A stretch of DNA of 64,000 nt from a virus (taxonomy: Duplodnaviria > Caudoviricetes): positions 32,001 to 96,000 of IMG/VR virus record IMGVR_UViG_3300029967_000162. One strand, given 5' to 3'. Positions within the stretch are counted from its first letter, which is position 1. Each line of letters opens with the position of its first letter. The translations under genes were made by a program, and so were the position numbers. Shown here one piece after another: positions 15,215-50,452 of the stretch. The notes under the pieces are model-generated. The model did not search any database. It had not been told where the DNA came from and worked only from the letters and a program-made list of their open reading frames with translations.

Positions 15215-15369
15215 ATAAGTGTCTTGTTAAAGATTAAACCAAGATATTTATTCTTAATTGTGAACTAGTGTGTTATTTGAGATCTAGCTGATCACAGAAA
15301 ACACAACTGTTCAACTACTTGACAATGTGAGCATTAATGAGATAAAAACAGAAATGGAAGTTCTAAGTG

Positions 15370-30333: not shown

Positions 30334-30481
30334 GCTATATTTCTAGAATATAAATTTGCCAAAATTCGCCTTTAAATATTATATTGCTTCTATATAAACC
30401 AATATAATATTATTCTTAAAATTACTTATTTTTTAATACTTTCAATTTCAAAATAAATAATTTAAAGAACATTATATTTAT

Positions 30482-31102
30482 ATGAAAGCTAAGGAGGTGA
30501 TGAAAGTCTTAGGCATTTCAAGACAAACTCTTTTCAACTATCTCAAGCAAGGCAAGATTACACTCAATGCAAAGTTGAACAAGAACTTCTATGACTATAA
30601 TGAAGACTCAGTTTATGCATTGATTTGCAACAAGAAGAACAAGCATAATAGACAGGTTGTATCATATGCAAGAGTTTCTTCTCAAAACCAAAAAGAACAG
30701 CTCAAGACACAAAACCAAAGAATTTATGAGTCATGCATATCTAGAGGACTTAATCTTGACTTGCAACTAGATGACATCAAGTCAGGCATGTCTGCTGATC
30801 GCAAAGGATTTCAAAAGCTTCTTAATATGGTACTACAAAATGAAGTAGAGGTAGTTGTCATTGAAAATAAAGATCGGCTCATCAGATTTGGATATGAAAT
30901 CATTGAATATGTCTTTAAATGTTTTGGAACTAAAATCTTAGTACTCAATGATGTACTAGAGAATAAGTCTTATGAGCAAGAATTGACTGAAGACTTGATA
31001 AGTATAATTCACTACTTCACTATGAAAAACTACTCACATAGAAGAAAGTTGAATAGATTGAGGAAAGAGCTTGAAGAAAGTGAAAAGTATCAAGATAAAT
31101 AA
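30482..31102 (+). CDS. tnpA: IS607 serine transposase
   Basis: N-terminal MerR-type HTH, YARVSS, DIKSG, ENKDRLIRFG, ELTEDLISII..F..K.YS.R. Confidence 0.93.
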   Translation: MKAKEVMKVLGISRQTLFNYLKQGKITLNAKLNKNFYDYNEDSVYALICNKKNKHNRQVVSYARVSSQNQKEQLKTQNQRIYESCISRGLNLDLQLDDIKSGMSADRKGFQKLLNMVLQNEVEVVVIENKDRLIRFGYEIIEYVFKCFGTKILVLNDVLENKSYEQELTEDLISIIHYFTMKNYSHRRKLNRLRKELEESEKYQDK

Positions 31103-31126
31103 ACTGTAACAAATCTATATTGCTTG

Positions 31127-32410
31127 ATGAAGACAATTAAGCTTGACATAAAGAAGTCTTGTACTTTAGACATCCAAGACTTGACAAGTACCTACAACTC
31201 AATTGTCAGGTTCAGCTTCAATCGTTTTCAAGAAGGATATAGATTTCCAGAAGTTAGGAACTTAGCCAACCAAACTTTTAAAGAGAAGAATGACTTGAAC
31301 TGTTGGATCATTCAGTGTGCGATCAAAGAAGGGTTCGAGCTAGTCAAGAAGGTTGGCAATAAGCACATCTTGTTTGGCGGAAAAGCTTTGTGAAAGAAGT
31401 ACTTAAAGAAGGAGATCACAAAGAAAGAGTTCAAATATGCTAGGATGAGGCCGGTCTGTATTGTTGGTGAAGCTCAATATCACGGCAACAGATTGATAGA
31501 CTTTGACTTAGTGAATGACAAGCTGACTTTGAAGCTTTCAAGGAAAGATCATCAGCTGATTGAGCTTGAGCAGCCACACAAAAAAGTCCAAGCAGAGCTC
31601 AACAGAGTCCAAGAGCTTGCAGAGAACAAGCTCATGCCAGTCACAGTCATGCTCACAAGCGAGTATGTCTGGTTGACTTATGATGAAAGTCTTCTCAAGA
31701 TCCACCAGCTCTGCAACTTGAAGGCTAACAGAGTACTAGGCATTGACTTGAATCCAAATGCACTAGGCATCTCTATTCTTGAGTTTGAGGAGCAAGACAA
31801 CTTCAAAGTCTTGCACAAAGAAGTAATAGACACATTCAAGCTCAACCAAGACAAAGTCTCAACAAACAAGAGGAAGTTTGAGTTGATCCAAATCTGCTAT
31901 CATGTCAAGAACCTAGTTGACTGTTGGAAGTGCGGCAAAGTTGCCATAGAAGAGCTCAATATCAAGCCAGGTGACAAAGGCAAAGGTCGGTGGTTCAACA
32001 AGATGTGCAACAACAGGTGGGACAGAAGCTTAGTAGCCAACAAGTTGAAGATGCTAGGCAATGAGTGAGGATTTGAAGTCATAGAAGTCAATCCTGCCTA
32101 TTCAAGCTTTGTTGGCAACATCCTCTATGGTGATGGAAACACACCAGACATGGTTGCTAGTTCGATTGAAATAGGCAGAAGGTCATACAAGAAATATTCT
32201 AAAGACTGGTTCTGACCTGCTTACAACATAGAAGGCATAGATGAGCAATGGAAGCAAACAGCTGCTGGAGTTGGAAGTTGGAAAGAGTTCTACAGTCAAG
32301 TGAAAGAACTTAAACTGAAATATAGGTTCCTGCTAGCTGACTTAGTCGGCAATGCAGTCTTCAGCAAATTCTATAGAAGAAGCAAGACAAGTTTATATAG
32401 TTTTGCTTAA
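31127..32410 (+). CDS. tnpB: TnpB-related RuvC nuclease, 427 aa
   Basis: Fragments joined by three TGAs (31391, 32066, ~32213); GIDLNP, AIEEL, VNPAYSSFVG, PDMVASSIEIGRR. Confidence 0.85.
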
Positions 32411-32430
32411 AATATTATAGATTTTGTATT

Positions 32431-33779
32431 TTTTGTTCTGATTGCTGTAGATGTTCTGATGAAGGAAAAAGATATACAAGAAAAAAGACAAAGCAGACAT
32501 GCCTTGAAAGATATGGTGTAGAAAGCCAAACACAACTGAAAGAAACACAAGAAAAAATCAAACAGACCTGCTTAGAAAAATACGGGGTCACTAATGCATT
32601 GAGATCTAAAGGCTCACAAGAGAAATCAAAGCGAACTTGCTTAGAGCGGTATGGCTCAGAGGTCCCAATGAAATCAAATGTGATTAAAGAAAAATCAAAG
32701 CGAACTTGCTTAGAGAAGTATGGTGTTGAATATTCATTAAAAGCTGAAAAAGTGAAGAAAAAATAAAGCAGACTTGCCTAAAAAAATATGGAACAGACAA
32801 TCCAGCCAAAGCTGAAGAAGTCAAAGAAAAATCAAAGCGAACTTGCTTAGAGAAGTATGGTGTTGGCAATACAAGAAAAGCAAAACAAGTTAAAGAAAAA
32901 ATCAAGCAGACTTGCTTAGAGCGATATGGAGCTGATGCCCCACTTAAGTCAAAAGAGGTACAAGAAAAAATCAAGCAGACTTGACTTGACAAATATGGTG
33001 TTGACAATCCAGCTAAAGCTGAAGAAGTCAAAGAAAAAGAAAGACAGACCTGCTTAGAGCGATATGGTGTTGACAATGCTTTGAAGTCTGAAGCAATCCA
33101 AGAAAAAAGAAAGGAAACACTTCTAAATAACTATGGTGTAGATGTTCCATTCAAGTCAGAAGAAATTAAAGAAAAGAAAAGACAGGTTTTCTTGAAGAAA
33201 TATGGTTCAACAAGTCCATTTGGTTCAAAAGAAATCCAAGAGAAAATAAAGCAAACACTCATAAAAAGATATGGAGTTCCTGCTGCAATGCAGTCTGAAG
33301 AAATCAAGATGAAGATAGATTACACTGAAATTTCAAAGAAAGGATTTGAAACCCGTCGTGAACATGGAACTCTCAGTACCTCTAAGATTGAAGATGAAGC
33401 ATTTGCTTGGCTTTTTGACAATTTCACTGATGTGAAAAGAAACTGAAACAATGATCCAAGGTATCCTTGGCATGCTGACTTCTATGTCCCATCACTTGAC
33501 TTGTTCATAGAGATACAAGGCAGCTGGACTCATGGCAAGCACCCATATGATATGACTTCACAAGATGACCTCACAAAGAAAGCTTTATGAGAGAGCAAAG
33601 CTGCTACTTCAGGGTACTATGCAAATGCTCTTGAAGTCTGGACTATCAGAGATGTTGAGAAACGCAAAGCTGCAGCTGCCAACAACCTCAGGTTCTTTGA
33701 GTACTTTGGCAACTCCTTAGAAGACTTCAAGGCTCAGCTCTCAGCTTTCATAGAACAAAAGTGCCAAGACAAAGCATAG
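32431..33779 (+). pseudogene. 5'-truncated repeat-array endonuclease with 12 repeats of 23 aa
   Basis: Begins mid Zn-ribbon (FCSDCCRCSDEG); frameshift in an A-run near 32760; C-terminal YPWHADFYVPSLDLFIEIQGSWTHGKHP intact when TGA = Trp. Confidence 0.82.
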
Positions 33780-33813
33780 CTTCATCTTGGCATCTCCGTC
33801 TTCTTCCTTTCTC

Positions 33814-34578
33814 TTACACGCTTGCAAGGGCCTTCCTGTCCATGAGCTGAGGCATCACCTCTGACATTATCTCTCGCTTAGGCACACCAATGCTCTGCAG
33901 AGTCTTGACTAAGATGTCAAAGTCATCTTTATCTATGCATATGACATAGTAGCCTTGCTTCCTGTCTTTGCCATAGAGAAGCCCAGACTCCTTGAAGAGC
34001 CTGTTGAAAGCTGCCATGTTGTTCACGACTTCTGAGTAAGGCCCATCTTTATACAAGATGTTCTTGAGGAATATCTTGTTATTGTTCAATGTTGACTCAG
34101 ATATGTTGTGCATCTTCTCAGGCAACACAGCCTTTGCCTCAGTCACAGCTGCAAGAGTTTTCTTCCTTGCAAGGAGTTGCTGGTTTAGAGAGAACAGCTG
34201 GTCTTGGTAAGTCTTCTCAGAAGTGAGCTTCTGGCTCTCTATAGAGAGTACATTCTGGTCAACTTCAGCCGGGTCGTATGCTGAAGTGTACTGGCTAGCT
34301 TCATTCCCATCAAGAGCAGTCTGCACTGCTTGCTTGGCAGCATTGAGCTGCTGGTCTAGTGAAGCCACTTCACGTGAGTGCCTTGCATTGAGGTCTGTGA
34401 TCTTGGCTTTCAAGCTAGAGACTGCGTCATCTTGGTCTATGCCTCTGAATGTCTTTGCCTCTGCTGTAGAAGAGTCAGTCGATGCATCAGTTGTTGCACC
34501 AGTCGTGGCACCTGTAGAAGAGTCATCTTCATTCAGCTTGATGTAGTGGCCTATGTTCAAGTCAAACTTGTATCTCAT
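33814..34578 (-). CDS. Hypothetical coiled-coil protein (candidate internal head protein)
   Basis: IKLNEDD motif near the N-terminus; downstream of the prohead protease. Confidence 0.6.
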   Translation of the reverse strand: MRYKFDLNIGHYIKLNEDDSSTGATTGATTDASTDSSTAEAKTFRGIDQDDAVSSLKAKITDLNARHSREVASLDQQLNAAKQAVQTALDGNEASQYTSAYDPAEVDQNVLSIESQKLTSEKTYQDQLFSLNQQLLARKKTLAAVTEAKAVLPEKMHNISESTLNNNKIFLKNILYKDGPYSEVVNNMAAFNRLFKESGLLYGKDRKQGYYVICIDKDDFDILVKTLQSIGVPKREIMSEVMPQLMDRKALASV

Positions 34579-34582
34579 CTCT

Positions 34583-35074
34583 CTAGATCCAGTTGTCTTT
34601 GATTGTCTGGGTGACAGCATGCTCAAAGAGCTTGTTGTTGAGAATTCTCTTGAAGTCTACAGACTCAGACTGTGCTTGTTGCTGAGTAGGTTGTTGAGTA
34701 GCCTGAGCTTGAGCTTGTTGTTGAGCATTTGCACTAGTATCTTGTGCAGTGCTTGCATCTTTTGCTTGGCCAATACTTGCATCATAAGCTGCAGCAAACT
34801 CTCCAACTGCCTTGTATACATTGCCAAGAGCGACATTCATTGTGGAAGCATCTTTAGCTTGCTTGAGCGTCTCCCATGCAGCATTGATTCCTTTCTTCTG
34901 CTCATCAGTTGCGCTCTTGAACTCTGGCATGTTCTTCTCTATGTTGGCTTTCAAGAACTCTAAGTATCCATCCTTGATTGCTTTCTGCGCTGCATCCCAA
35001 TGCTGTGCTGCTTGTCCTAGCTGCTGCCCAGCACTTGCATCTTCATTGAGCTTCTTGTGTATGTAGAACTTCAT
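34583..35074 (-). CDS. Hypothetical Ala/Gln-rich protein (candidate internal head protein)
   Basis: KKLNEDA motif; ATAAATA upstream at 35101-35107. Confidence 0.6.
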   Translation of the reverse strand: MKFYIHKKLNEDASAGQQLGQAAQHWDAAQKAIKDGYLEFLKANIEKNMPEFKSATDEQKKGINAAWETLKQAKDASTMNVALGNVYKAVGEFAAAYDASIGQAKDASTAQDTSANAQQQAQAQATQQPTQQQAQSESVDFKRILNNKLFEHAVTQTIKDNWI

Positions 35075-35179
35075 TGTGGTCCCTCTCCAACAATTTTGAA
35101 TATTTATCAACTTGTCTCTAGAGCCCACAAAGGAGAGCACTCAGCTCTCCTTCATGTCATTCATGTGTACAGCAGCAGT

Positions 35180-36922
35180 CTATCCTCTGTATGCTGCATC
35201 AGACTTCAAGATAGCTTCCTGCATGAGTTCAGGCAAGCTCTTTGAATATCCTAGCTCGTTGTCAAAGTCCTCACCACTGTACATCTTCTTGTATCTCTCT
35301 TGGAGCTGTGCTTGCTCAAGCATCATCTGCTTGCGCTGGCGAAGCCCAGTCCTTGCCCAGAATGCATCTACATCAGCCTTAGTCTCAAGCACCAAGAACT
35401 TAGCGCTCTCTTCGATTGCATCTTGCACCTCAACAGGTGCATCTACATAGAGCTTGCGATCTTCATCACTTGCAAGCCTGAGCCATGCTTTCTGCATCTT
35501 CTTCTCTTCTTTCAAGCCATCTTCCCAAGACTCGTTGATTGCAGCTACATCCATGATGCCATTGTCAACAATGTACTTCTCACAAATGTCACGGTCACTC
35601 TCAGAGAGTGCAACGAATTTGCCAAAGTTAGAAGGAGAGAGGCTTACAGAGAATGGCCACCTAGAGATGATGCTCTCTTTAGCTTCCTTCTTCTTGGAGA
35701 GCTTTGCAAGGAGGTCATCTACACTGCTGAGATCTTTTTCAGCTTTCTCTACTGCATCATCAACTTTCTTGGAGACTTCCTCTTCTTTATGTTCCTCTTC
35801 CTTTGGCTCTTCATCTTTAGCTTCTTTGACATCTTCATCCTCTTCAGGAGCTTCATCTTCCTTCTTCTCTTCTGAATCCTCTTCTGTTTTTTCTTCTTCC
35901 TCATCACCCTTGTGCTTGCCAACAATGCTTATGATCTCAGCGCGCTTAGCTTTCTTCTCATCATCCTCTTCAGGAGATTCGTCTTCCTTCTCAACAGAAG
36001 TGACATCTACAATGTCATCCCTCTTCTCTTCTTTCTCCTCATCAGGCCCTTCATTGAGGTGCTCATCAGGCTTTGCATCTGTCTCAAAGCTTGCGCTTGC
36101 ACCTTTAGCAGGCACAAGACCCATGTCACGAATCTCAACACCTGCTTCCTTTGGATCATCAATCTGAGAAGGCTTGCGCTCCTGTGGGATCTTGTCCTCT
36201 TCATTGAGAGGAGTGACTATATCTTTCATGCTGTATGTCTTGTTACTCATGTCTGTGTCAGCCTTGTATTCTTCATCCATCTTTGTGAGAGTAGTCTGTG
36301 CATCAAGCTTAGTGTGCTTAGGATCTACTTTAGTTGAAGCGCCAGCAGCTTCAGCAAGGAGCTTCTGCACCGCAGGGCGATAGCTCTCAGCTATACGGTT
36401 GAGGCGTGCCTCTTCAAATCCGGGTGTGCAGACTATGTCATAGGTGAATATGTTAGCTATCTCAACTTCATGAGTGTGCTCATCAACTTCACCTGCTGCA
36501 CGGCTTGATACGAAGATAGGGTATCCAGCCTTTACAAGACTCCGAGCAATCTGCCCATTTGGAGTGTCAAGCAACTCAATCTTGCCCATCACATTGTGGT
36601 TCTTTTGGTCATACCAAAGGTCTGTGATTTTGTGGGAAGCTTCCTTGAGAGACACATCAAACCTACCTTCTGGATGGTCAAGCTCGCCAAGTATGCAACC
36701 ATCAGCTTTGATCTTGTCGCGAAGATAGCCAATGTGTTTCAACATTTCCTTTTCTTGGTAAATTCTACCATTTCTGTTTATGATGGTCCTTCCTGGACAA
36801 CTGCATGCCGTGAACACTCCTTGGAAGATGAATTTCTCAGGAGCGGCAGTTCCTTCAGATTCATTAATCCTATGAAGCTGATTTCCACTATTGTTTCGTA
36901 TAAGATAGTTTAACTTATTCAT
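35180..36922 (-). CDS. Prohead protease (T4 gp21-like) with long acidic scaffold-like extension
   Basis: NRNGRIY, LGELDHP, SHKI, LDTPNG, VSSRAAG, TYDIV..PG motifs; E/K-rich C-terminal region. Confidence 0.92.
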   Translation of the reverse strand: MNKLNYLIRNNSGNQLHRINESEGTAAPEKFIFQGVFTACSCPGRTIINRNGRIYQEKEMLKHIGYLRDKIKADGCILGELDHPEGRFDVSLKEASHKITDLWYDQKNHNVMGKIELLDTPNGQIARSLVKAGYPIFVSSRAAGEVDEHTHEVEIANIFTYDIVCTPGFEEARLNRIAESYRPAVQKLLAEAAGASTKVDPKHTKLDAQTTLTKMDEEYKADTDMSNKTYSMKDIVTPLNEEDKIPQERKPSQIDDPKEAGVEIRDMGLVPAKGASASFETDAKPDEHLNEGPDEEKEEKRDDIVDVTSVEKEDESPEEDDEKKAKRAEIISIVGKHKGDEEEEKTEEDSEEKKEDEAPEEDEDVKEAKDEEPKEEEHKEEEVSKKVDDAVEKAEKDLSSVDDLLAKLSKKKEAKESIISRWPFSVSLSPSNFGKFVALSESDRDICEKYIVDNGIMDVAAINESWEDGLKEEKKMQKAWLRLASDEDRKLYVDAPVEVQDAIEESAKFLVLETKADVDAFWARTGLRQRKQMMLEQAQLQERYKKMYSGEDFDNELGYSKSLPELMQEAILKSDAAYRG

Positions 36923-37016
36923 AATGTCTATAAAATAGTCATGGCATAATGCATAGCACACACTGCCACAACTATTTATTTTTCATCATATGAAGCTATG
37001 ATTTTAGCTCTTTATC

Positions 37017-38363
37017 CTACAAAGGCTTGTAGCTTGCAACATAGTCTTCAGAAAACTTTGGATACACATTGTTGCCCATGACTTGCACCCTTGCTGGATC
37101 TAGCAAAACCAAGAATGGGTCTTCACATTTTGCAATGTCATGAGATGATGCATGGATTGAAGCCTGTGGCCATGACATCACACACTTCCTGAATGCCTTC
37201 TCAATCCACTCTTGCACATAGAGAGAGCTGCTATTGATCTCATTGACAAAGAGCAGCCAAGTGCACCCACATGGATCTTGCAACTTCTCTTTAGTTATCA
37301 ATGCCTCGTCTCCTCTGTTGCACTGCCCAAAGCACTTGAGGTTGCTCAATTGCACACCGGCTCTCATCGCTGCTGTCTCTACCATAGCTTTTGTGCAATT
37401 GTATGCTGCATCCCCTTCACCATAGTAGTGCTTAGGGACATAGTACCCTATCTTCTGGCAATTAAAGTCAATGTGCTGCTTAGTGTACCATACATCTTCT
37501 CTTGGCGAGACATCTCTTCCACACTCATCATATCTCATCTCTACCAATGGCTTTGGGAGCCTAGAGATATAGAATCGAGAGTTGCCAAGCACACCTGGCA
37601 TGAATCAGTCTACATATGGACTTGTCTTCCCGAACCGTGCATACTCCTCAACCTTTAGCTCTGTCGACACTTTGTCTTTCTGAGGAGCATTCACAATCTT
37701 GTTGCTTAGGCTTGACCTGACAAATGCAAAGTGGTGGCACATCGGCTTCTTGAACTCATAGATGCTCTCTGTGTCAAGCTGCCGCATGAAGTCAATCTCA
37801 TAAGTGAGCTTAGGGTTCACGACAAACTTCTTGAACTTGAATGGCACGCTTGCCTTGCAAATGAAGTTGAACCCAACCTCTGGGTTTGATATGATATGTG
37901 TGAAGTCTTTGTAGTAGTGATATCCAGTGCAGTATGTAGCTTCTATCTCTGGATGCTCCTCACACCATTTCACAGACTCTCTGATGTCTTCTGGCTCATA
38001 GAGCTCATCTGAGTCGATGATGAGCACTCTAGAGCAGCCTTGCTCCCAGAGGAGCAGTCGAGCCATGTTTCTCTTGTTGACTTCTCTTGCTGTGCTCTCA
38101 TTCCATCCATTCTGGTAGTCACAGTTGACAGCTGGGTCCAAGATTGACCAACTGTCAATGAAGCTTTCCTCTTTCAGCTTCTCCAAGTATGGCTTCACCT
38201 TGCTTGGGATCTCACTCTGCAAATCATAAGACTTGTCTTGCACATAGACCGCAAGATACTTCACTCCGGCTTCTCTCATTCGAGAGCAGATGTCTTTCAA
38301 GAACTCTACATTCTCAAATGCAATGATGCCTACACCAAGGTCTAAGTCTCTCTTTGTTCTCAT
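37017..38363 (-). CDS. Glycosyltransferase-like protein (paralog of N-domain of 24925..26883), 448 aa
   Basis: GVGIIAFE...REVNKRN...IIDSDELY...MCHHFAFVR; joined to 37017..37601 via TGA37605. Confidence 0.65.
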
Positions 38364-38372
38364 ATGCTTGTC

Positions 38373-39473
38373 TTAGTCTTTTTCTTTCAAGCCAATGATC
38401 TCAAGCAGCTTCCATGTCCTGAGCTTTGTGTGGTCAAAGTGGTACTTCACAATTAGTGGCAACTTCTTGTCCACATTATCTTGCATCTGTGGGAATGCAC
38501 AATAGTAGTTGCGGGCATACCAAGTGTGGTACAGCCATCTCTTGTATACTCCTGGCTTGTCAACCTCGCTCAACAAGCTAGTTGCAAGGAAGTGCTTCTG
38601 CTCATCTATGAAGTCTTGTGAGTTGAGATACCAGAATGGCTTCTTTGTGTTGATGCCAAGCCACCACCACAAGTTGTAGTAAGACTCAAATGCTTCTTCT
38701 GTGACATTCATGTCTTTCCAAGTCTCTCTAGTGATTTCATAGAAGTAGAAGTCTTCATGCTGCTCTACTTGCCTGATTGCTTCAATCCTCTCATCGAAGT
38801 CTCTGAATGGAGATGTCTTTGCATAGAGCGACCTTGCAAGCACAGACCTCCTGTTGTCTTCTTGGAGAACTTCTCCTGGGATGCTAGATGTGAACTCTGA
38901 CCACTTGATCTGCTTGGCTGTCTCAGCAAACTCAAGCACCTTCTCTGATGTGATGCCTGCCTGCTCTATCACCTCAATGTTCCAGAAAGAGAGGAATGGG
39001 TTGATTGCAATTGGGTTCTGTGACCTGACCAAGCAGCAACCTCCATCTGGTATGCCTGCTACTGGAGACCCAGATTCCAAGAACTTCTCAAGCTCATTGA
39101 GCATGAGCTCTGCACATGAGATATCAAGGAATGCATCTTCATCAAAGTAGATGACTGCTCTCACCTTTGAGCCACTATATCCAAGAAGCCGCTCATTGTC
39201 ATAGAGGACATTGTAAAGCATATACTCAAATGCATCTCTGCCATATCTGTAGCAAGTATCTACATCATCTTGATTGTAGATACAGAAGTGCTGCTTGGAG
39301 TCAAACTTGGAAGCTTTAGAGAAAGTCGATGGCAAGAACATCAAGTTGTCTTCAAAGAGAGGAGCAAATGACTTGATAGCATATCCACCAACAGAGTTCC
39401 ACTGGTAGAAGCCATTTGTTGTGAACAAGACTCTTAAATCTTTGAGCCTCTTCTTTATGTCTCTAATCTCCAT
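38373..39473 (-). CDS. Glycosyltransferase-like protein
   Basis: YFDEDAF (DxD), NPF..FWN and YHTWYAR motifs. Confidence 0.5.
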   Translation of the reverse strand: MEIRDIKKRLKDLRVLFTTNGFYQWNSVGGYAIKSFAPLFEDNLMFLPSTFSKASKFDSKQHFCIYNQDDVDTCYRYGRDAFEYMLYNVLYDNERLLGYSGSKVRAVIYFDEDAFLDISCAELMLNELEKFLESGSPVAGIPDGGCCLVRSQNPIAINPFLSFWNIEVIEQAGITSEKVLEFAETAKQIKWSEFTSSIPGEVLQEDNRRSVLARSLYAKTSPFRDFDERIEAIRQVEQHEDFYFYEITRETWKDMNVTEEAFESYYNLWWWLGINTKKPFWYLNSQDFIDEQKHFLATSLLSEVDKPGVYKRWLYHTWYARNYYCAFPQMQDNVDKKLPLIVKYHFDHTKLRTWKLLEIIGLKEKD

Positions 39474-39542
39474 CTTCTTACAAATAGTTCCCAAGAAAGG
39501 TGGTTGGTCTTCAGCCAAGCACATGAATTGGGAACTTAAAGT

Positions 39543-39995
39543 TTATACTAAATTTTCAAAATCTGTCTTGCCTTGGTTCTGTATGTACTTCTTGACAATG
39601 TCTTCATTGTTTATGCCAACTGTTGCAACAAAATAACCTCCTGTCCAAAGCTTCTTTTTCTTTCAGAAGTACCTATTCAAGAACAGCCTTGCATTTCAGT
39701 TCTTGTAGATGTAGTCTGTAGACATCTGCTTCATCCTCCTGACCATTGAAGCAATGCTATAAGTTGGTGAGATCTCAAGCAAGAAGTGAATGTGGTCTTT
39801 GTCTATGCCCATCTCGTGTATCTTGAAGTCTGACATAGACTCTGCATACCTGAAAGCTTCAAATACAAGATCTTTGATTGGCTCTAGCACGGGTTTCCTA
39901 TATTTTGTTGAGAACACAACATGATATCTGATGTGTGTCCTAGCATGTGAATAAGTCTTGTAATAGAACTCTATATTATTTTTTTCTTGTTGCAA
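39543..39995 (-). CDS. tnpA: HUH Y1 transposase
   Basis: YHVVFSTKYR, DHIHFL (HUH), LWTGGYFVATVG, KYIQNQ; the catalytic C-terminal part is reached only through two TGAs. Confidence 0.92.
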
Positions 39996-40031
39996 GATAA
40001 ATAAAGTAAGTTTAGTATATATATTTGTACT

Positions 40032-41345
40032 TTGGAAAGACTTGCCAAAAATAAATCAATTGCTGACTCTTACAGGCAGACTATGCAGAAGAGGCAGGGG
40101 CAAGTCTGCAAAGTGTACACAGTCAAAGTCCAGAAGAACAGGCTCAACAAAGTCCAAGCAGAGACTTTGAAGATGCAATTTGTTGAGGCTAAGTGGCTCT
40201 ACAACTATATTCTCAACAAGTCAATGGAAGGTGATATTAACATCTTTAAAGCTGACTATAAAGACTTCAAGAAGATAACACATCTTGATAAAGACCACAA
40301 TGAAGTAGAGGTTGACATATCATTTCTTGATTGTCAAGGCATGCAGAGCTTGATAACTTCTATCCAGTCTTCTATCAAGACTTTGCACAAGCTGAAGGCA
40401 TCTGGAAGCAAAGTTGGCAAGTTGAAGTTCAAGACTGACTGGACATCATTGAACATCAAGCAGTTTGGTGAAGACAAGATTAGGTCAAAGAACAAAGTCA
40501 AAGTTCCTGGCATTCGCAAAGAGCTAAAAGTGAATGGTTTAGACCAGATTTTGAATTCAAGGTATGGAAAGCTTGACATAGCAAATGCAAAGCTTATCAA
40601 GAAGAATGATGACTACTATGTTGCTATCACCTGCTTCATCGACAAAGACGTGTATGAAAGACTAAATGACAAATCTAGAACACTTTATAAAGAAATAGTT
40701 GGCATAGACTTTGGTTGTCAGTCCTCATTGACCTTTTCTGATGGAAGGAAAGTCAACTTGTCTGTTGAAGAAACTGAGCACATAAAGAGACTGCAGAGGA
40801 AACTTTGTAGGCAGCAGAAAGGCTCAAGCAACAGACAAAGGACAATCATGAAGATCAGGAAAGAGTACGAGAAGATCGACAACAAGAAGAAAGACTTAGC
40901 CAACAAGACAGTGCATGGCATCTTTGAAGGATACGGCCAAGTGTGCATCCAAGATGAGCAGCTGAACAAATGGAAGAGCCAACATGGCAAGAAAGTCCAG
41001 CACTCTTGCCTGGGGCTTGTCAAGCAAAGGCTAATCAACAATGGTGCATTTGTCATTCATAAATATGTGCCTACTACAAAGATATGTCTTGAGTGCGGTC
41101 ATGTTGTTGAAGACATGAAGCTCTTTGATAGGACTTTTAAGTGTCCCGTCTGTGGAAGCACATTAGATAGAGATGTCCATGCAGCACAGAACATGGTTTG
41201 GTATCACCAACACAAAGAGACCATAGGTGTGGAGCGCACCAAATTCAAGCGACTGGACTTCAAGTCACAGATGGCTAATCTGTTTGGCCATGATGTGTAT
41301 GAAGGATTTAAGGTCGAAGATGCTCGGTCTTCAGCCGAGCATTAG
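40032..41345 (+). CDS. tnpB: RNA-guided endonuclease TnpB
   Basis: GIDFG, IQDE, PTTKICLECG...CPVCG..LDRDVHAAQN. Confidence 0.92.
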   Translation: MERLAKNKSIADSYRQTMQKRQGQVCKVYTVKVQKNRLNKVQAETLKMQFVEAKWLYNYILNKSMEGDINIFKADYKDFKKITHLDKDHNEVEVDISFLDCQGMQSLITSIQSSIKTLHKLKASGSKVGKLKFKTDWTSLNIKQFGEDKIRSKNKVKVPGIRKELKVNGLDQILNSRYGKLDIANAKLIKKNDDYYVAITCFIDKDVYERLNDKSRTLYKEIVGIDFGCQSSLTFSDGRKVNLSVEETEHIKRLQRKLCRQQKGSSNRQRTIMKIRKEYEKIDNKKKDLANKTVHGIFEGYGQVCIQDEQLNKWKSQHGKKVQHSCLGLVKQRLINNGAFVIHKYVPTTKICLECGHVVEDMKLFDRTFKCPVCGSTLDRDVHAAQNMVWYHQHKETIGVERTKFKRLDFKSQMANLFGHDVYEGFKVEDARSSAEH

Positions 41346-41413
41346 TTCACGAAAAGAAATCTTCGAAAATTCTATCTAGGAAGCTTGAGCTTGTCTAGAG
41401 ATTTTCAAAGAAA

Positions 41414-42130: not shown

Positions 42131-42176
42131 TTGCTGGTACTAATTTTTAATTTTATTGGACTATGCGCATGTTTGT

Positions 42177-42467
42177 CTAGAAAGATGAAGTGTAGCCAAG
42201 CTTTGCAAGCTTCCTGACAAGTGGCACAATGACCTTGTCTCGAGACACATTGCCGGTGAAGCAGTCTATCTCTTTAGTTCCGTCTACAAGCAAGAGCTTG
42301 CCAGATCCGATCTCTTTGTCAGCCTCTATGTCATCTTCCATCACAGTCGCATACACGACATATTCAAGCTCATCTTCTCTAGGTGTGCTGTACACTTTCC
42401 CATGCAGTGTCTGTGCATTAGAGTTGAACTTGACATCTGCAACAAGGTTGCTTTCTTTCTTTTCCAT
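42177..42467 (-). CDS. Hypothetical protein
   Basis: Clean ORF co-oriented with its neighbour. Confidence 0.65.
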   Translation of the reverse strand: MEKKESNLVADVKFNSNAQTLHGKVYSTPREDELEYVVYATVMEDDIEADKEIGSGKLLLVDGTKEIDCFTGNVSRDKVIVPLVRKLAKLGYTSSF

Positions 42468-42589
42468 CTTCAAGTTGTCTTAGAAAAAACTACATGTGTT
42501 TGTATCATTGGATGCAAGGAATGTCTCACATTTTGAGAGGACAAAGCCACTATCCCACTTTAAAAACTTTGACAAAAGAATTTTTGACA

Positions 42590-44251
42590 ATGGCAAAGAA
42601 GACAGCAACTGGAGACCCTGGGCAGATGAGTTCTGTGTTTGATCTCATAAAGAGCTTTGATGACTCAGCAGAGATCATCGCAGACAGTGCATACTCTAAC
42701 ATCAAAGAGTGGATTCCATCAGGCAACTACATATTGAATGCATGCATGTCTGGTGACTTGTTCAAGGGACTTCCTTCCGGCAGGACAATATCTTTGATTG
42801 GCGAAGAAGGGACTGGCAAGTCATATTTGCAAGTATCATTTTGTCGTGAAGCACAGAAACTTGGATGGGTCCCCGTGATATTGGATAGTGAGGGTGCGAT
42901 TGACTCTACATTTGTTGAACGGCTTGGTGTAGATCCCAAGAACTGCATCATCAAGCAGGTGAACACAATCTTTGAGACAAACAACTTCATATCTAACTTG
43001 GCCAAGTCTCTGCAAGAGCAGCAAGACAAGTATGGTGAGCACCAGAAAGTGATACTTGTGCTTGACTCTCTTGGCAACTTGACTTCAAGCAAAGAGCGTG
43101 ATGACACAATGGCTGGTGAGCAGAAGCGAGACATGACGAAGGCACAAGAGATTCGTGCACTGTTCAGGGTAAACCAAGTAGCATTGTCTAAGCTGCAGAT
43201 CCCATGGATTGTAATTGGGCATGTTTATGCATGCCTATCTAAAGATGCTGAAGTGCTTATGGCTGACAACTCAACAAAGAACATCAATGAGGTATCTATT
43301 GGTGAGAAAGTCATGACTCTTGCTGGTCCTAGAAAAGTTGAGTCACTTCATGAATATGAAGTGAAGAATTGCATACATTTTGTGTTTGAAGATAGTACTT
43401 CTCTCACTTGCACACCAAACCATATGTTTGCCCAATCTGTAGAAGATGGTGGATATATATGGGTAGAAGCAGCAAATTTGATTGAATGCGACACAGTAGT
43501 GCTCAAAGATTCTCATGAGCTTAGAATCACATCAAAGACAATCATAGAAGAACAAACAAAAGTCTATGACTTGACTGTGAGTGGTGAGCACACATATTTC
43601 TTGAAGAATGGAATCATATCACACAACAGCAATGACATGTTCCATCCAGGCCCTCAGCAGTCAGGTGGAGGTGGCATCAAGTACAACTCTTCTATCACAT
43701 TGCTCCTCTCTACTAGGAAGCTTGAAGACAAAGAGAATGATGCAGCGGCTGGCAAGAACATAGGCAACACCCAGACTAAGAATGGCATACTTGTCAGTGT
43801 GACACCTAAGAAGTCTAGGTTCTGTGTGCCTAACAAAGTCTCATTCCAGATTCCATTCTTCAAGGCACCTAATCCATATGTTGGGCTCGAGCAATACTTG
43901 AACTGGGAGAATGCAGGTGTATGTCGTGGCAATGTCCTTGATGAGAAGGCATATGCCAAGCTGAATGCAGCTGAGCAGGCTAAGTGCCATGAGTTTGAGC
44001 ATGATGGGCAAAAGCTCTGGTGCCAGCCTAAGGACAATGCACGTGGCATGGCGGTGAAGCATCTTGGACGGCAAGTCTCATTCATTGAGTTCTTCTCAGA
44101 TGTCGTGTTCACAGATGACTACTTGCATGAGATCAATGAGAGAGTGATCAAGCCAATATTCCAGCTGCCTTCACGAGATGCATTTGATGACATCAAAGAT
44201 GTTGAGGAGACACTTGGGATCGACCAAGAAGATGAAGAGACAACAGAGTAG
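42590..44251 (+). CDS. uvsX: RecA/UvsX recombinase containing an intein
   Basis: GEEGTGKS Walker A, LDSEGA, LDSLGNL, DMTKAQ, SGGGGIKYNSS, KSRF. Confidence 0.93.
   Translation: MAKKTATGDPGQMSSVFDLIKSFDDSAEIIADSAYSNIKEWIPSGNYILNACMSGDLFKGLPSGRTISLIGEEGTGKSYLQVSFCREAQKLGWVPVILDSEGAIDSTFVERLGVDPKNCIIKQVNTIFETNNFISNLAKSLQEQQDKYGEHQKVILVLDSLGNLTSSKERDDTMAGEQKRDMTKAQEIRALFRVNQVALSKLQIPWIVIGHVYACLSKDAEVLMADNSTKNINEVSIGEKVMTLAGPRKVESLHEYEVKNCIHFVFEDSTSLTCTPNHMFAQSVEDGGYIWVEAANLIECDTVVLKDSHELRITSKTIIEEQTKVYDLTVSGEHTYFLKNGIISHNSNDMFHPGPQQSGGGGIKYNSSITLLLSTRKLEDKENDAAAGKNIGNTQTKNGILVSVTPKKSRFCVPNKVSFQIPFFKAPNPYVGLEQYLNWENAGVCRGNVLDEKAYAKLNAAEQAKCHEFEHDGQKLWCQPKDNARGMAVKHLGRQVSFIEFFSDVVFTDDYLHEINERVIKPIFQLPSRDAFDDIKDVEETLGIDQEDEETTE
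43232..43627 (+). mobile_element. Mini-intein (132 aa, no homing endonuclease)
   Basis: Block A CLSKDAEVLMAD, block B CTPNH, block F VYDLTV..EHTY, block G NGIISHN followed by Ser+1. Confidence 0.93.
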
Positions 44252-44315
44252 GCAAGCTACTTTTGGATGACGGTTGTTTTGAGAGCTCAGTGGAGATGCT
44301 GAGCTCTCTTTGTGT

Positions 44316-44999
44316 CTAGAGGCCTATGGCATCTCTTGCTTGGAGAGGAAGTGAAGAGATGAAAGTCTCAAATTCTTGTGATCCTTCATAGTAGTGCACA
44401 TTGTCTGAAGTGACCACAAATGACCTCAACACATCAACTAAGATGCAGACTTTGTGGAATGGGCTAGAGGTAGACGCAGACAAGTCTTGGAAGACATAGA
44501 TGTCATAGAGCTTGGCATAGTTCTCATACTCTAGAGAATCAAGAGCAATGCACCACTTTGTGGAGTTCCCTTGCTCTTCTATCTCTTCAAATGATGAGAT
44601 GTGCCAGAGCCTGGATGTGCTGTCTGAATAGATCAAGCCAGAAGCTTTCAAAAGCTTGTGAGCTTGTGACTTCGACATGTGCTTCTTGAGCTCTGCTTGC
44701 TTGACATCATCTATGAGATCTTGCCAGGTCTTCTTTGTCAGGTCTGGGCTGTCAATCTAAGGAGTGAGCTCATGCCACTTGTTCACTACTGAAGCAACTG
44801 AGAGATAGTTGTGCCCTTGTGTGGTGAGCTCACACATCTTCTTCACAAGCTTCTTTGTTGGTGTCTTGTCTGAAGCTATGAGAGCATCAAGCATGAACTT
44901 TGGCATCAAGTTGCCATAGAGCTGCCTTGCAAGCTTGAGTGATTCAGAGAGTTGTTCCATAAGTCTATCTATTGATTTCCTGTCAAGCTCTTTGAGCAT
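44316..44999 (-). pseudogene. Hypothetical phage protein interrupted by one in-frame TAG
   Basis: ORFs 44757..44999 and 44316..44678 are in frame across TAG44757; contains G..TKWCI motif. Confidence 0.55.
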
Positions 45000-45032
45000 A
45001 AATACTTAAATGTCAAAATTTTAGTTTAGCCT

Positions 45033-45383
45033 ATGGATTTCATCTCTTTGATAATAAGCATATTAGCACTCATAATCTCAGCTCTTGCATTGATTGCAAA
45101 GCTTGGCAAGGCAGAGAAAGGCGACAAGGGAGACAAAGGTGACCAAGGACCGATGGGTCCTCAAGGTCCTAGAGGTGCTGATGGTGAAGCCGGTGCTCAA
45201 GGCCCACAAGGAGCTCAAGGCGCAGTCGGCCCACAAGGACCCCAAGGTGCTGCAGGTGAAAGTGCAATCAAGGTTGAAGGATCACTCACCCATGATGACA
45301 TCATCAAGCTCCTCAATGAGTCTGATGTAGAGATAGAGAGCAATGTGAAGGCAAAGGCCTTCTATGCCAATGAGAAGAAGTAA
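45033..45383 (+). CDS. Membrane-anchored collagen-like protein
   Basis: Hydrophobic N-terminal helix followed by ~16 Gly-X-Y triplets. Confidence 0.8.
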
Positions 45384-45476
45384 TCTAGAGAGACACCGCA
45401 CAGAAGAAGAGCTCTAGACTTGAGCTCTTCTTTTTGCTTATAAATCTTAAGCATGCAAAATCATTTCAAAGGTTAG

Positions 45477-47522
45477 ATGCCATTCAATGAGAATGAGAAG
45501 AGATACAACAAGCTAGACAAGCTTGCGGAAGGTGAGAAGCTGCAGACTGTGTACTCAACTGAGAAAGTTGAGAAGATACTCAAAGACATGGGCAAAGGCT
45601 TGCAAGTTGACATGTCGCCTTTCTTCCATGGAGACACTAGATATAAAGATGCCGGATTGCTCTACAACTACACAGAGCATGAGATTGAAGAGCTGCAGAA
45701 GTGTGCTGATGACTGCTTGTACTATGTGAAGAACTATTGCAAGTTCTTGAATGACAAAGGCCGCACACTAGTCCAGCTGCGCGACTACCAAGAGCAATAC
45801 ATACAGATGCTTGGAGAGCAAGAGTATGATGAAGACATTGGAGAGTCGATACCTAAGAACAGGAGAATCATAACAATGATGGCTAGGCAATCATCCAAGA
45901 CCACATCCACAGCAGCTTACATGTCATGGTACATGACATTCCATACAGACAAGAACTTGGCCATTGTGGCGAACAAAGGCAAGACTTCACAGGAGATTGT
46001 CTCTAAAGTCAAGGAAGTATTTGAAGGTCTTCCATTCTTCATGAAGCCTGGCATCATCCGTGCACAGATGCAGTCTATCACACTTGAGAACGGATGCTAC
46101 TTGATGTGTGCGACTACTAACCCAACTTCCATCACTGGCCAGTCTAACAATGTGCTCTACATAGACGAGGCAGCCCACATACCCCAGAACATCATGGATG
46201 CATTCTGGAAGTCAGTGTATCCCACTCTGTCTTCATTCAAGAACCAGCAGCTCATCATATCTTCTACACCTAAAGGCAAGCAGAACTTGTTCTATCGCAT
46301 ATGAGATGGCTCTATGAAAGGAGAGAACAACTTCAAGAACTTCAGAGTGGACTGGTGGCAGGTGCCTGGACATGATGATGCTTGGGCAGCAGAGCAGATC
46401 AAAGACTTTGGTGCTGACAACTTTGCACAAGAGTTTGGGCTCAGGTTTGAGTCAGACTCATCAAAGCTCATACGAGGCGAAGACTTCAAGCTCATGGACA
46501 GGTGGAAGTCCAAGTACAAGGTTAGGTCATTCGATGGCGTTGACAAAAGGATCTCTGACAAGATCTTCTGAGACCCAAGATTCACAATAGACACAAACAA
46601 CTTGCAAGAGCTCCAGAGAAGGCACTTCTTGATAAGCATAGACACAGCAGAAGGCAAGCAAGCTGGTGTGAAAGGCAAGCAGGACTCTGACTACAACATT
46701 GGCAACATATTTGAGGTAGAGCTCATGTCGCCAGCTAGGGTGCGGAGGAACAAGAGAAGCACGATGAAGAAGCAAGTGGCATATGCGGACTGCATCAGGT
46801 ACAGGCAGGTTGGCATATACATTGACAACGACAGAGATGAGGAAGAGCTTGCTGAAGCGATGAAGGTTGTGACCTTCAATGTGCTGAAGTGTGGTGTTGG
46901 TGATGTGGATAATGTGAGGCTCCTCATAGAGATGAACTTCAATGGCAAGAACTTCGTGAACAAGTTCAAGGCACATGACAACTTCTATGACAGTGTAATA
47001 ATCAAGACATACCACAACAAGCCGGTGCCAGGGCAGCAGCACACAAGGCAGTTTGGCTATAAGACAGTAGGTGGCGAGAGAGGCAAGGGATACTGATGTG
47101 AGCTAGGTGCAAAGATGGTCGCAGATGGGCGAATCATCATAAGCCACTATGATGATGACTGGAACAAGTCATCTATTGGAGAGCTTGAGAACTTTGGCAA
47201 GAACAACAGAGGAGTGTATGAAGGCTGCTGCGTGCATGATGACATAGCGATGACTGTGCTCTCTGTGAGCCACACACTAGATGACTCTCTTGAAGACTAT
47301 ACAGCTTGGCTTGAAGAGTATGTAGACAGGCTGCCGAAGGATGACAAGCATGCTGAAGATGTGAAGAAGCTGATGAAGATATACTCAGAGAGTGAGAGTG
47401 ACTGGTCTGACAGCGACTTCAATGCAATGTATGGAATTGACAATGGAGCACACAACAACATGCCATACCAGAGCATGGTGCAGAATGTGCAGTGGGCTAT
47501 TGCACAGAAGTGAAGGCACTAA
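45477..47522 (+). CDS. terL: Terminase large subunit (T4 gp17-like), 681 aa
   Basis: LRDYQ, ARQSSKTT, YIDEAAHI, ISSTPKG, FAQEF, IDTAEG, DY, HDD motifs; fragments joined by TGAs at 46302, 46569, 47094 and 47511. Confidence 0.94.
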
Positions 47523-48346
47523 TGCTTGTTGTCATCTAGCAGGTAGTTCAAGAACTTAGCAGATGCATTGATGTCAAACTTCAAGAACTCTGGCCTAATG
47601 TTCTCTTTTGTATAATAAGACCTTCCCATCATTGGATCTTTATAGAACCTCATGTCTTTAGGAAGGTTCTTTGTCTCTATCATGAAGATTGCTGGATATA
47701 TTGTTGTTCTGTTCAAGATTTTCTTGAATCTATCAAGCTTAGAATACCAAACATCTGCAAGCAACTCAAATGTTGCATTTAAGTCTGATGAAGGCTCTAT
47801 GAAATAGATTCTATCAGAATAGCCAAAGTCTTTGTTCTTTCCAGAAGGCATAAGCCCAATAGTTTCAATCTTCTTTTGTCAAACACTTGCTGTCATATGA
47901 AACAATGTTGAACACTTCTTAGAAAACTTTGAGACCGGCTGTACCCAATCTGCTTCATATTGATAGTGATGGATTGTTGCACCTTTATATGTTCTTACGC
48001 TATATGTAGCAGGGCTATATCCACATGCTTTGAAAATCTTGTCAGCTTTGCTTACTATGTCTTCATGAACTTTGTCATCAACATCAACAGGTATAGTAAG
48101 ATGAAGGATAGTAGGCACATTGTTTATGTCTTTTGTATATGACATGATTTCATCTAAGTCTAAGTCATCATAGTCAAGCATAGACTTCAAATACCTAATT
48201 GCAGCCTTAGGCGAGTAAGTTCGTATCAATCCTTCTTCTATCATGACTTCAGCCGCTATTTGAGAGATTCCACGCATCTTTATTTCTTGCTTGCCATTCA
48301 ATCTTTCTGATATGTCTCTTGCCCAAGCTTGGTTGATTCTCTTCAT
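47519..48346 (-). CDS. ADP-ribosyltransferase/KptA(Tpt1)-like fold protein
   Basis: Joined via TGA47879: LFHMT...KI..IGLMP...RIYF...FYKDP...YTKENIRP. Confidence 0.55.
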
Positions 48347-48389
48347 GGCATTCAAAATAATTAAAATTATTAAAAATAATTAAATTATT

Positions 48390-49601
48390 TTAATTTGTGA
48401 GGGCAATCCTCACTGGCCTAGCCACAAGGCCTCTACTCCCTAGCAATGCATCAGGAGATGCTTTTCAAAACTTTCTTGCAATGTTGAGCGAACCATTCAC
48501 ATCAGCATTCAAGAGTCCAGTTGGGTCTTTGAACAATCCACGCTTGATCCTCTTCCCAGTTGGCTTGAAGAGTTCATCATCAACTTTCCAAGTTGGCAGA
48601 TAGTCATTGTTGAAGAAACTGCACTTTGATGTATAGCTTTCTTCTTGCAACACCACATTAATTCCTAACAACTTAGCCTTATATTCAATCATCTTCACAA
48701 ACTGTCAGAATGGTATCTGCACAAAATTCTGGTTTGACTTCTTTGACATGCTTGTGTCTTGTTTCCATCCTTTGTTGTAACCAACAATGATTGTTGTCAA
48801 GGAATGTTCAACGGCTTGATTCACAATCACTCTAGAAGCCTTGTGGAGATAGTCTTTGACTTTGTTGTTTCTTTTCAGGCTCAATGCTTTGACTTTGTTG
48901 CTTGATTTTTGCTTGTTTTGCTCTAACTTTGACTTATAATGTGCTAACTGTTTGTTATAGAATTGGTTGATTGACTTCAAAGGTTTCCCATCAATAATGA
49001 ATGCATTCACTCTATTAGAAGTACATGTTGCTAAGTTGTTTACCCCTAAGTCTATAGAAAGCCAATTCCCGTTCTGTTCTTTGAGTTCTTGTTCTTCTAC
49101 TTCATAGACAACTTCTATGATAAGATAATCACCTTTTGGTATTACTCTAACTTGCTTTAAATCATTAGTATGCTTTGAATTAAATTCTAAATTTGTCTTT
49201 GGTAATCTGATAATACCAATTTTCAAAAAGTTCTTGCTTAAAGTCATTGAATTATAAGTCAAGACAAATCTTCCTTTCTCTTTATCTAAATAACTAGGTA
49301 TCCTAACTTTTTTTCCTGATTTCTTCTTGAGCGACTGAAAAAATGACTTATAATTGTAATAGACTAACTTAAGTACTTCTTGTGATGTATTTGAAGGCAA
49401 TGCAAAGTAGTTCTCATCATGTCTGTCATGCAAGAGTCTGTTGAGGCCATAGTAGTCAAGAAAAGTCTTGTCTTTGAAGAACTGCTGCCTGACTTCATAG
49501 AGAGCAGCATTATAGAGGTTCTTAGACAAGAAGCACAAATGATCAAGCTCTTTGTAGAGCTTGTCTGCCTTCTTGACTATATGTTGCTCAACTAATTTCA
49601 T
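48390..49601 (-). CDS. tnpB: RNA-guided endonuclease TnpB, 403 aa
   Basis: SKNLYN, IDLGVNN, LHKAS, EESYTSKCS, RIKRGLF, NADVNGSLNI; two internal TGAs (48705, 48465). Confidence 0.9.
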
Positions 49602-49623
49602 TATTTAATAATCTCAATCATAT

Positions 49624-50226
49624 TTATTTATCTTCAAGCTTCAAATCTTTTTCAATGAGCTGCAACTTCTCTTTTCTTCTTGATGAGTACATCTTCATAG
49701 AGAAACAATGAATCAAAGAGATGATTTCTTCAAAGATTTCTTTCTCAATCTCTCTAGGATTGTCTATCTCATTGAGCACTACTATGTCTACTCCATACTT
49801 TTCAAACAAAGACTTGAAAGTCTGAAATGAGATTCTTGAAAGTCTGTCTTTGTAAGTTATGAAGATCTTGTTGATCTTGTATGATGTGACATCATCTAGA
49901 AGCTCTTGGAACCCGTCTCTATCAAGTGACATCCCTGAAGCAATGTCTTTGTAAATCTTTGAGACCTTTACACCATTCTTGAAGCAGAACTGCTCTAATG
50001 TAGAGATTTGATTCTCAAGGTCTTTCTTCTGGCAGGTTGAAGAAACTCTAGCATAGATTACATTGATTTGCTCTACATTCTTGTTAAGTAGTTTATAGAC
50101 ATCATTCTTGTTGTAGTCATATTGGCCGTTTGGTAAGGTCTTTGTTGATATTCAGCCTCTAGAGACATAATGACAAAGAGTAGGTCTTGTAATTTTTAAC
50201 AAAGACAATACTTCTTTAGCTTTCAT
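49624..50226 (-). CDS. tnpA: IS607 serine transposase
   Basis: MKAKEV HTH, IYARVSS, DIASG, YKDRLSR; one TGA in the HTH region. Confidence 0.9.
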
Positions 50227-50348
50227 ATAATAAATAGTTAAGATTTTGTTATTTATTATAATAGAAGAAAATAATTTTAACAAAATCTATGTATAAAAAA
50301 GAAGTGGAGATAGACAATCTTTAAAATTTAAGATATAATTTAAAAATT

Positions 50349-50432
50349 GCCAATATGGGACAGTGGTCAACTCCACCTGCCTTGTAAGCAGGCTCTGTAT
50401 AAGATGCGCAAGTTCGAATCTTGCTATTGGCT
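50349..50432 (+). tRNA. tRNA-Thr(UGU) with long variable region
   Basis: Acceptor GCCAATA/TATTGGC; anticodon arm CCTGC-CTTGTAA-GCAGG; T arm GCAAG-TTCGAAT-CTTGC; 15-nt variable region. Confidence 0.8.
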
Positions 50433-50452
50433 CAAGATAAATTATCTTGACA

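Follow-up and report, generated by a model that had tools for sequence, protein, structure and literature searches.

The window analysed here, a 64,000-nt stretch of viral DNA spanning bases 32001-96000 of the IMG/VR record IMGVR_UViG_3300029967_000162, harbors three insertion sequences (ISs), two of the IS607 type (elements A and B) and one of the IS200/IS605 type, and eight in-frame TGA codons are spread over four of their six tnpA and tnpB genes. We consider it probable that these are three intact ISs residing in a Lak-related megaphage that reads TGA as Trp, and that their TGA codons reflect passive drift to the code of the carrier, with a barrier to escape arising as a by-product. On this account, genes evolving in a TGA-reading genome would gather TGA codons, whereas elsewhere the same changes would be nonsense and be purged. 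The IS proteins would be made and active during infection, with the IS genes probably transcribed from a phage-type ATAAATA motif, and the persistence of the elements in the phage population would probably rest on the TnpB proteins acting as RNA-guided homing nucleases.

The phage and its insertion sequences

The source record is a single linear sequence of 134,147 bp, with an estimated completeness of about 24% (CheckV), and encodes a tail sheath, a T4-type prohead protease and a T4-type large terminase (TerL) whose best match, at 43% identity, is to Prevotella Lak megaphages. Coordinates given below are window positions unless labelled G000. With TGA as sense, greedy open reading frame (ORF) coding density was 0.919 instead of 0.857 and the mean ORF was 319 instead of 222 amino acids (aa) long, with no comparable gain in either measure when TAG or TAA was read as sense. 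The terminase contains four TGA codons, three of them within the part that aligns with Lak, where the Lak counterparts are Trp, Trp and Phe; across the phage's own genes as aligned to Lak, six of 16 TGA sites fall at Trp and seven of 16 at Tyr or Phe. Reading TGA as Trp hence restores frames and coding density and places TGA in alignment with Trp. The phage is a Lak-related megaphage in which TGA is read as sense genome-wide. Searches of IMG/VR returned no close phage relatives by TerL, and the sole other contig with the locus is 100% identical to the phage record.

Element A comprises tnpA1 (30482-31102, plus strand), which encodes a 206-aa serine transposase and has no TGA and no Trp codons, followed by tnpB1 (31124-32410, plus strand; 428 codons, probable ATG start at 31127), with TGA at codons 90, 315 and 364 (31391-93, 32066-68 and 32213-15). 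Its outer ends lie within about 30334-30481 and 32411-32450. Element B (48343-50297, minus strand; about 1955 bp) contains tnpA2 (49624-50226, minus strand; 200 codons), with a TGA at codon 25 (50154-52) in the N-terminal DNA-binding domain, and tnpB2 (48390-49601, minus strand; 403 codons), with TGA at codons 299 and 379 (48707-05 and 48467-65). The ends of element B were placed by homology, both of them aligning with the ends of a 2001-bp IS that occupies positions 4563-6563 of contig L001 and 3663-5663 of contig L002 and is 99.9% identical between these two different phage-like contexts. In both IS607 elements tnpB immediately follows tnpA on the same strand, with intervals of 21 nt and 22 nt, respectively. 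TnpA1 and TnpA2 score 163 and 178 bits against the NCBIfam IS607 transposase model (NF033518, cut-off 110), and both match the Pfam Resolvase domain, with additional weak helix-turn-helix (HTH)/MerR matches, and show the catalytic-serine motif YARVSS. TnpB2 scores 199.5 bits against the NCBIfam guided_TnpB model (NF040570, cut-off 100).

The IS200/IS605 element presents a textbook layout on the plus strand. A TTAC target (39478-39481, plus strand) precedes the left end and is followed by a left-end subterminal hairpin (39486-39536, plus strand; predicted fold energy -24.8 kcal/mol), an inverted tnpA (39543-39995, minus strand; 150 codons, TTG start), tnpB (40032-41345, plus strand; 437 codons, no TGA) and a right-end hairpin (41321-41341, plus strand) that overlaps the 3' end of tnpB, with the right end of the element lying between 41346 and 41413. 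The right-end hairpin and the inner left-end hairpin have the loop TCTTCAG in common. The element has both the hairpins at its two ends and the insertion 3' of TTAC that are typical of its family. The encoded transposase, hereafter IS200 TnpA, scores 108.9 bits against the NCBIfam IS200/IS605 transposase model (NF033573, cut-off 55), and its HUH motif and Tyr137 align with those of the IS608 TnpA structures, as in a Y1 HUH enzyme, provided that its TGA codons are read through; these are codons 100 and 111 (39698-96 and 39665-63, minus strand), both ahead of the catalytic Tyr137. The IS605 TnpB scores 110.9 bits against guided_TnpB, with the same cut-off of 100, and contains Pfam OrfB_IS605 and TNB domains.

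Two further fragments of the left end of this element were identified beyond the window, both preceded by TTAC. The first (G000 24725-24912, 188 bp) is 100% identical to window positions 39478-39665, and the second (G000 118338-118456, 119 bp) is 97.5% identical. Since the 188-bp stub includes TGA codon 111, the copy from which it derives must have carried this TGA before the stub formed.

For the protein encoded by tnpB1, a Pfam search gave no match above threshold, a sequence search of the PDB recovered no TnpB, and a profile-versus-profile comparison of the two TnpB families was not significant. TnpB1 is 51-57% identical to a large family of 432-aa proteins in huge-phage contigs, and within the TnpB1 family D208, E276 and D342 are invariant. 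The top Foldseek matches of its structural model (predicted local distance difference test, pLDDT, 59; poor after residue 275) are Cas12f, TnpB, Cas12k and RuvC, with E-values down to 3e-9. The predicted fold and the invariant residues support the identification of TnpB1 as a putative TnpB-like RuvC protein lacking a zinc finger. Beyond the window, at G000 20321-21862 (minus strand), the genome has a fourth gene of this kind, a solo TnpB1-like gene of 513 codons that shares 31% identity with tnpB1 and contains two TGA codons, one of them at a family-invariant Trp.

No internal TAA, TAG or frameshift is present in the six IS genes (1824 codons), and the chance of random nonsense mutation producing eight stops that are all TGA is about 1.5e-4. 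Five of the six IS proteins score above the cut-off of their family models, TnpB1 being the exception. The RuvC D-E-D triad is recovered through the family model in IS605 TnpB and TnpB2, and through the predicted fold and invariant residues in TnpB1, while the zinc finger (CxxC...CxxC) is present in IS605 TnpB, absent in TnpB1 and degenerate in TnpB2, as it is across their respective families. Nonsynonymous divergence (dN) from the nearest relatives is 0.19-0.30, with synonymous divergence (dS) saturated. A search for guide RNAs or ribozymes near the ISs gave no Rfam family, RAGATH types included, at E-values up to 1. The original prediction, made from the letters of this DNA and their ORFs, had given exactly the TGA counts reported above (three in tnpB1, two in IS200 tnpA, one in tnpA2 and two in tnpB2) at correct coordinates, and its description of the catalytic motifs as otherwise intact holds, with the catalytic residues present and the frames free of other disruptions.

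Translation with the standard code would end TnpB1 at residue 89, IS200 TnpA at residue 99, ahead of Tyr137, TnpA2 at residue 24, and TnpB2 at residue 298, ahead of RuvC-II and RuvC-III. Judging from these frames, completion of the four proteins requires a setting in which UGA is decoded, and the copies found here are tied to TGA-reading carriers. TnpA1 and IS605 TnpB are complete even under the standard code. Because these two proteins are encoded without TGA, element A and the IS605 element are each only half code-dependent, and the proposal that all three elements are fully active only when UGA is suppressed was too strong. The expectation that they would be crippled under the standard code stands for the four of six proteins cut before essential residues, but not for the two that remain complete. 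Standard gene calling does fail on them, as had been anticipated: in a public record of the same phage, tnpA2 appears as a fragment of 102 aa and tnpB2 as two fragments of 298 aa and 75 aa. Since transposases and TnpBs are split by standard callers in recoded phages, surveys of phage TnpB and Cas12-like proteins are bound to undercount them.

TGA sites, TGA load and relatives under other codes

We examined which residues occupy the TGA sites in homologous proteins. Codon 111 of IS200 tnpA corresponds to Trp in 12 of 17 relatives, whereas codon 100 is variable (His, Tyr, Cys, Lys, Glu and others). In TnpB1, near relatives have Leu, Met or Tyr at codon 90, and distant ones Phe or Tyr; codon 315 is Tyr or Phe, and codon 364 is Tyr in 118 of 120 relatives. 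In TnpB2, codon 299 is variable (Asp, Gln, Glu, Asn) and codon 379 is Leu in 119 of 119 near relatives, encoded by TTA in four of the six relatives read, the L001/L002 IS included, and by CTA in L010 and L172. At codon 25 of TnpA2 the nearest relative, the L001/L002 IS, has Leu (TTA), with Lys or Glu farther out. A family Trp thus underlies one of the eight IS sites, and the other seven fall at non-Trp residues. Conversely, conserved Trp residues are written TGG at all seven sites in TnpB1, at the single such site in TnpB2 and at the invariant Trp117 of IS200 TnpA. The TGA sites fit a Trp reading, in which one or two would be silent TGG-to-TGA changes and the remainder aromatic-to-Trp, Leu-to-Trp or variable-site replacements, and at least two TGAs arose from TTA in a single step, a change that the standard code would turn into a nonsense mutation. 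The mix of residues at TGA sites, defined for the phage genes by comparison with Lak, does not differ significantly between IS and phage genes.

Two other descriptions of these sites were considered and set aside. The notion that TGA never occupies a Trp site in the IS genes is ruled out by codon 111 of IS200 tnpA, and that of ordinary pseudogenes is rejected by the lack of TAA, TAG and frameshifts in the six genes and by the retention of catalytic residues. The original prediction had named TGA at non-Trp residues combined with relaxed selection as the mark of pseudogenes; the former applies to seven of the eight sites, but we see no sign of decay.

To place these numbers in context, we used a background set of 67 confident non-IS genes, each 200 codons or longer (30173 codons in all). 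This set contains 85 TGA and 438 TGG codons, equivalent to 2.8 TGA per 1000 codons and to a TGA share of 16% of Trp codons, and 43 of its 67 genes carry TGA, compared with four of the six IS genes. The IS genes contain eight TGA in 1824 codons (4.4 per 1000), where 5.1 would be expected at the phage rate (Poisson p=0.15). The TGA load of the IS genes is therefore close to that of the phage genes, which makes the apparent locking more probably a by-product of residence in a recoded genome than an adaptation, and does not uphold the view of a code lock as a special property of the ISs.

Relatives of the IS607 elements were found under several genetic codes. In Lak phages, members of the element A family carry five and eight TAG codons in the aligned part of tnpB, five in tnpA and no TGA. 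Campylobacter phages with the standard code also harbor this family, as do contigs of 350-380 kb, one of which, a 378-kb contig with a TnpB1 relative, was examined and shows phage-like genes and no in-frame stop. Similarly, the two closest IMG/VR relatives of TnpB2 (L090 and L091) contain 13 and 11 in-frame TAG codons, and all 24 coincide with Gln sites of the family, a clean code-15 pattern unlike the mostly non-Trp placement of TGA here. Seven more TnpB2 relatives from metagenomes contain one to seven TAG each. The five TAG-bearing loci checked all lie in TAG-recoded DNA, where coding density rises from 0.45-0.71 to 0.77-0.93 with TAG as sense, and the three stop-free loci checked all lie in standard-code DNA. 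Among approximately 360 TnpB2 homologues from genomes, viral contigs and metagenomes, the copy in this phage alone carries in-frame TGA. Searches of 5.8 billion protein clusters, GTDB genomes, IMG/VR and JGI metagenomes yielded no copy nearer than 64% identity. An identical TGA-bearing copy did not turn up anywhere else, and no copy with TGA was seen in a standard-code chromosome.

Phylogenetic analysis of TnpB2 (MAFFT alignment and FastTree inference on 68 sequences, with near-duplicates dropped at about 90% identity) placed it in an 11-leaf clade (support 0.99) that combines standard-code contigs, TAG-recoded phage contigs and this phage, and from which the chromosomal copies of Cyanobacteria and Chloroflexota stand apart. 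All clade members with context examined are on phage-like contigs. Because the clade mixes codes, with each member using the codon of its carrier, these IS lineages appear to circulate among huge phages and to have crossed code boundaries. The comparison with host-borne and phage-borne homologs that the original prediction had called for places TnpB2 in this largely phage-like clade, one member of which, L010, is filed as a contig of a metagenome-assembled genome (MAG). More generally, the nearest relatives whose context was checked lie in phage records or phage-like contigs, in line with the elements being phage-resident transposons. L010, a 360-kb contig of the GTDB entry "Bacilli bacterium fecal_MAG_225", holds the closest genome-borne TnpB2 relative (64%), and may be a misbinned jumbo phage.

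Alternative explanations for the TGA codons

Several observations weigh against passive drift in intact elements. Two near-invariant residues, Tyr364 of TnpB1 and Leu379 of TnpB2, are lost to TGA, which may impair function. TGA accounts for 33% of the Trp codons of the IS genes against 16% in phage genes (Fisher p=0.046, uncorrected and based on 24 codons). Neither an empty site nor a second copy of element A or B was found in this genome, and no tRNA(UCA), release factor or tryptophanyl-tRNA synthetase (TrpRS) was found within the 134 kb that represent about 24% of the genome, a permissive ARAGORN run on the fragment yielding noise only. Lastly, the host, and with it its code, is inferred only from distant Lak kinship (TerL, 43%) and from the small fraction of Trp codons written as TGA (16%). 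The loss of the conserved Tyr and Leu could be taken to mean that the elements are non-functional, decaying relics, in which Trp at such positions is damage that a recoded genome fails to expose as stops. Of the 173 columns that are highly conserved in its family, TnpB1 does deviate at 37, the tnpA of the IS605 element starts with TTG, and two IS605 copies have been reduced to left-end stubs. We nevertheless find it improbable that the elements are relics, given 1824 codons without TAA, TAG or frameshift and the retention of all catalytic residues. Moreover, TnpB2 departs from its relatives at 11 of 148 conserved columns, mainly through Val/Ile/Leu swaps and within the 0-17 seen in full-length relatives, and the complete identity of the 188-bp remnant with the full copy points to recent activity.

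The nominal excess of TGA among Trp codons leaves some room for selection, and could be read as the trace of an adaptive gate, in which TGA codons were selected because they hold transposase and TnpB synthesis until late UGA read-through, shielding early replication from self-cutting and disabling elements that land in a host chromosome. Such timing has been proposed for a TGA-preferring homing endonuclease in Agate phages (Borges et al., bioRxiv 10.1101/2021.08.26.457843), and both the origin of seven of the eight TGAs at non-Trp sites and the location of the phage's own upstream motif before IS genes are compatible with it. The density of TGA is not significantly above background, however, two of the six IS genes, one of them a transposase gene, are TGA-free, and most phage genes also carry TGA, non-Trp sites included. 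We hold the gate to be unlikely, and selection for TGA as a late-infection gate is not demanded by the present numbers. A wider proposition, that the transposons of giant gut phages are specialised residents that share the promoter motif of the phage and adopt the stop reassignment of their carrier (TAG in Lak, TGA here), their recoded codons being a selected switch of timing and containment that would permit transposases and RNA-guided nucleases to be made only in the late, code-switched cell, strikes us as equally doubtful. It is very improbable, finally, that the code is not phage-specific and that TGA already specifies an amino acid in the host (code 4 or 25), with elements moving freely between host and phage. 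A host of this kind would agree with the lack of any suppressor tRNA or code-change gene in the fragment, but TGA aligns with Trp and aromatic residues and not with Gly, which excludes code 25. In native code-4 organisms TGA is the main Trp codon, whereas here its share is 16%, and it is absent from 24 of the 67 genes. The nearest phages by TerL are, in addition, Prevotella Lak megaphages, and none of the roughly 360 TnpB2 relatives is another TGA-bearing homologue. Passive drift under the code of a TGA-reading phage remains the account that we favor.

Upstream motif, known systems and neighboring features

The motif ATAAATA is located upstream of tnpA1 (30453-30459, plus strand), before the IS605 tnpB (39997-40003, plus strand) and before tnpA2 (50250-50256, minus strand), confirming the three occurrences listed in the original prediction. 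The window contains 21 copies, against 4.3 expected, a number that none of 100 shuffles reached. In the 134 kb, 20 of 32 copies are followed within 5-50 nt by the ATG of an ORF of at least 100 codons, and in this association with long-ORF ATGs the motif scores best among all 21 permutations of its letters. In this phage ATAAATA is a genuine upstream signal, beyond AT-richness. It is also found less than 50 nt ahead of the start codons of other phage genes, for example at 15245, 24224, 36973, 44998 and 58491, and 10-56 nt upstream of tnpA or tnpB starts in relatives from Lak-B7, Lak-A1, one TAG-recoded contig and standard-code contigs. The ISs would hence appear to be wired to phage-type transcription. 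The motif resembles the T4 late promoter TATAAATA, to which it may be related.

The closest parallels to element A are ISCaje4 of Campylobacter phage CP220 (NC_027997) and unannotated copies in Lak phages, all of them phage-borne and consisting of the same pair of genes, a serine tnpA followed by a gene for a zinc-finger-less TnpB-like protein. TnpA1 is 58% identical to the ISCaje4 TnpA remnant across 83 aa, and TnpB1 is 32-35% identical to the annotated ISCaje4 TnpB and to the Lak copies. Unlike element A, ISCaje4 of CP220 is in standard code and its TnpA is a stub, and the Lak copies carry in-frame TAG in both tnpB and tnpA, where element A has three TGA in tnpB only. For element B, the nearest relative with checkable ends and mobility is the L001/L002 IS (TnpA 75%, TnpB 62% identical), L010 being marginally closer in TnpB, so that TnpB2 is 62-64% identical to these TGA-free relatives. 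As in element B, this IS has ATAAATA upstream of tnpA, together with the homologous left and right ends; it differs in using the standard code with no in-frame stop, and in having the Leu codon TTA at the positions of tnpA codon 25 and tnpB codon 379. The IS200/IS605 element resembles IS608 (ISHp608) of Helicobacter pylori (2A6M, 2VHG; E-value 5e-14) in its HUH-Tyr TnpA, its insertion 3' of TTAC and its subterminal hairpins at both ends, and differs from it in TnpA sequence (about 30% identity), in the two TGA before the catalytic Tyr and in being phage-borne. Its opposed tnpA and tnpB genes match the arrangement of IS605.

A selfish-element gene with a recoded codon in a TGA-recoded phage has a precedent in the Agate phages, in which a group I intron homing endonuclease prefers TGA and delayed synthesis has been proposed (Borges et al., bioRxiv 10.1101/2021.08.26.457843). 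The preference is significant in that intron endonuclease, whereas the ISs described here are transposons with TGA at background level. Transposons are not mentioned in that work or in the other papers on recoded phages and Lak phages that could be searched, and recoding is not mentioned in the megaphage paper that discusses TnpB. The ISs offer a natural example of a code mismatch that limits where a mobile element can work, and recoding alone predicts the pattern, with no new mechanism. In synthetically recoded bacteria, genetic-code "firewalls" operate on the same mismatch, which blocks the expression of transferred mobile DNA. Unlike these, the barrier seen here would be natural and partial, with two genes TGA-free, and it is the mobile element itself that would be stranded. 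Furthermore, the occurrence of the same IS607 lineages in standard-code, TAG-recoded and TGA-recoded huge phages constitutes a natural read-out of residence time under a code.

Some neighboring features complete the description of the locus. Between the IS605 element and element B, a RecA/UvsX-like gene with an intein (Hint domains) is found at 42494-44251 (plus strand) and is TGA-free. Downstream of element B, an ORF at 47519-48355 has an in-frame ATG (48346-48344, minus strand) that straddles the inferred right end of the IS, and element B may abut or supply the start of this ORF. About 50 nt beyond the left end of element B lies an 85-nt tRNA called as Thr(UGU) (50349-50433, plus strand), followed by a tRNA-Met; the former has a long variable arm, a feature that is unusual for tRNA-Thr.

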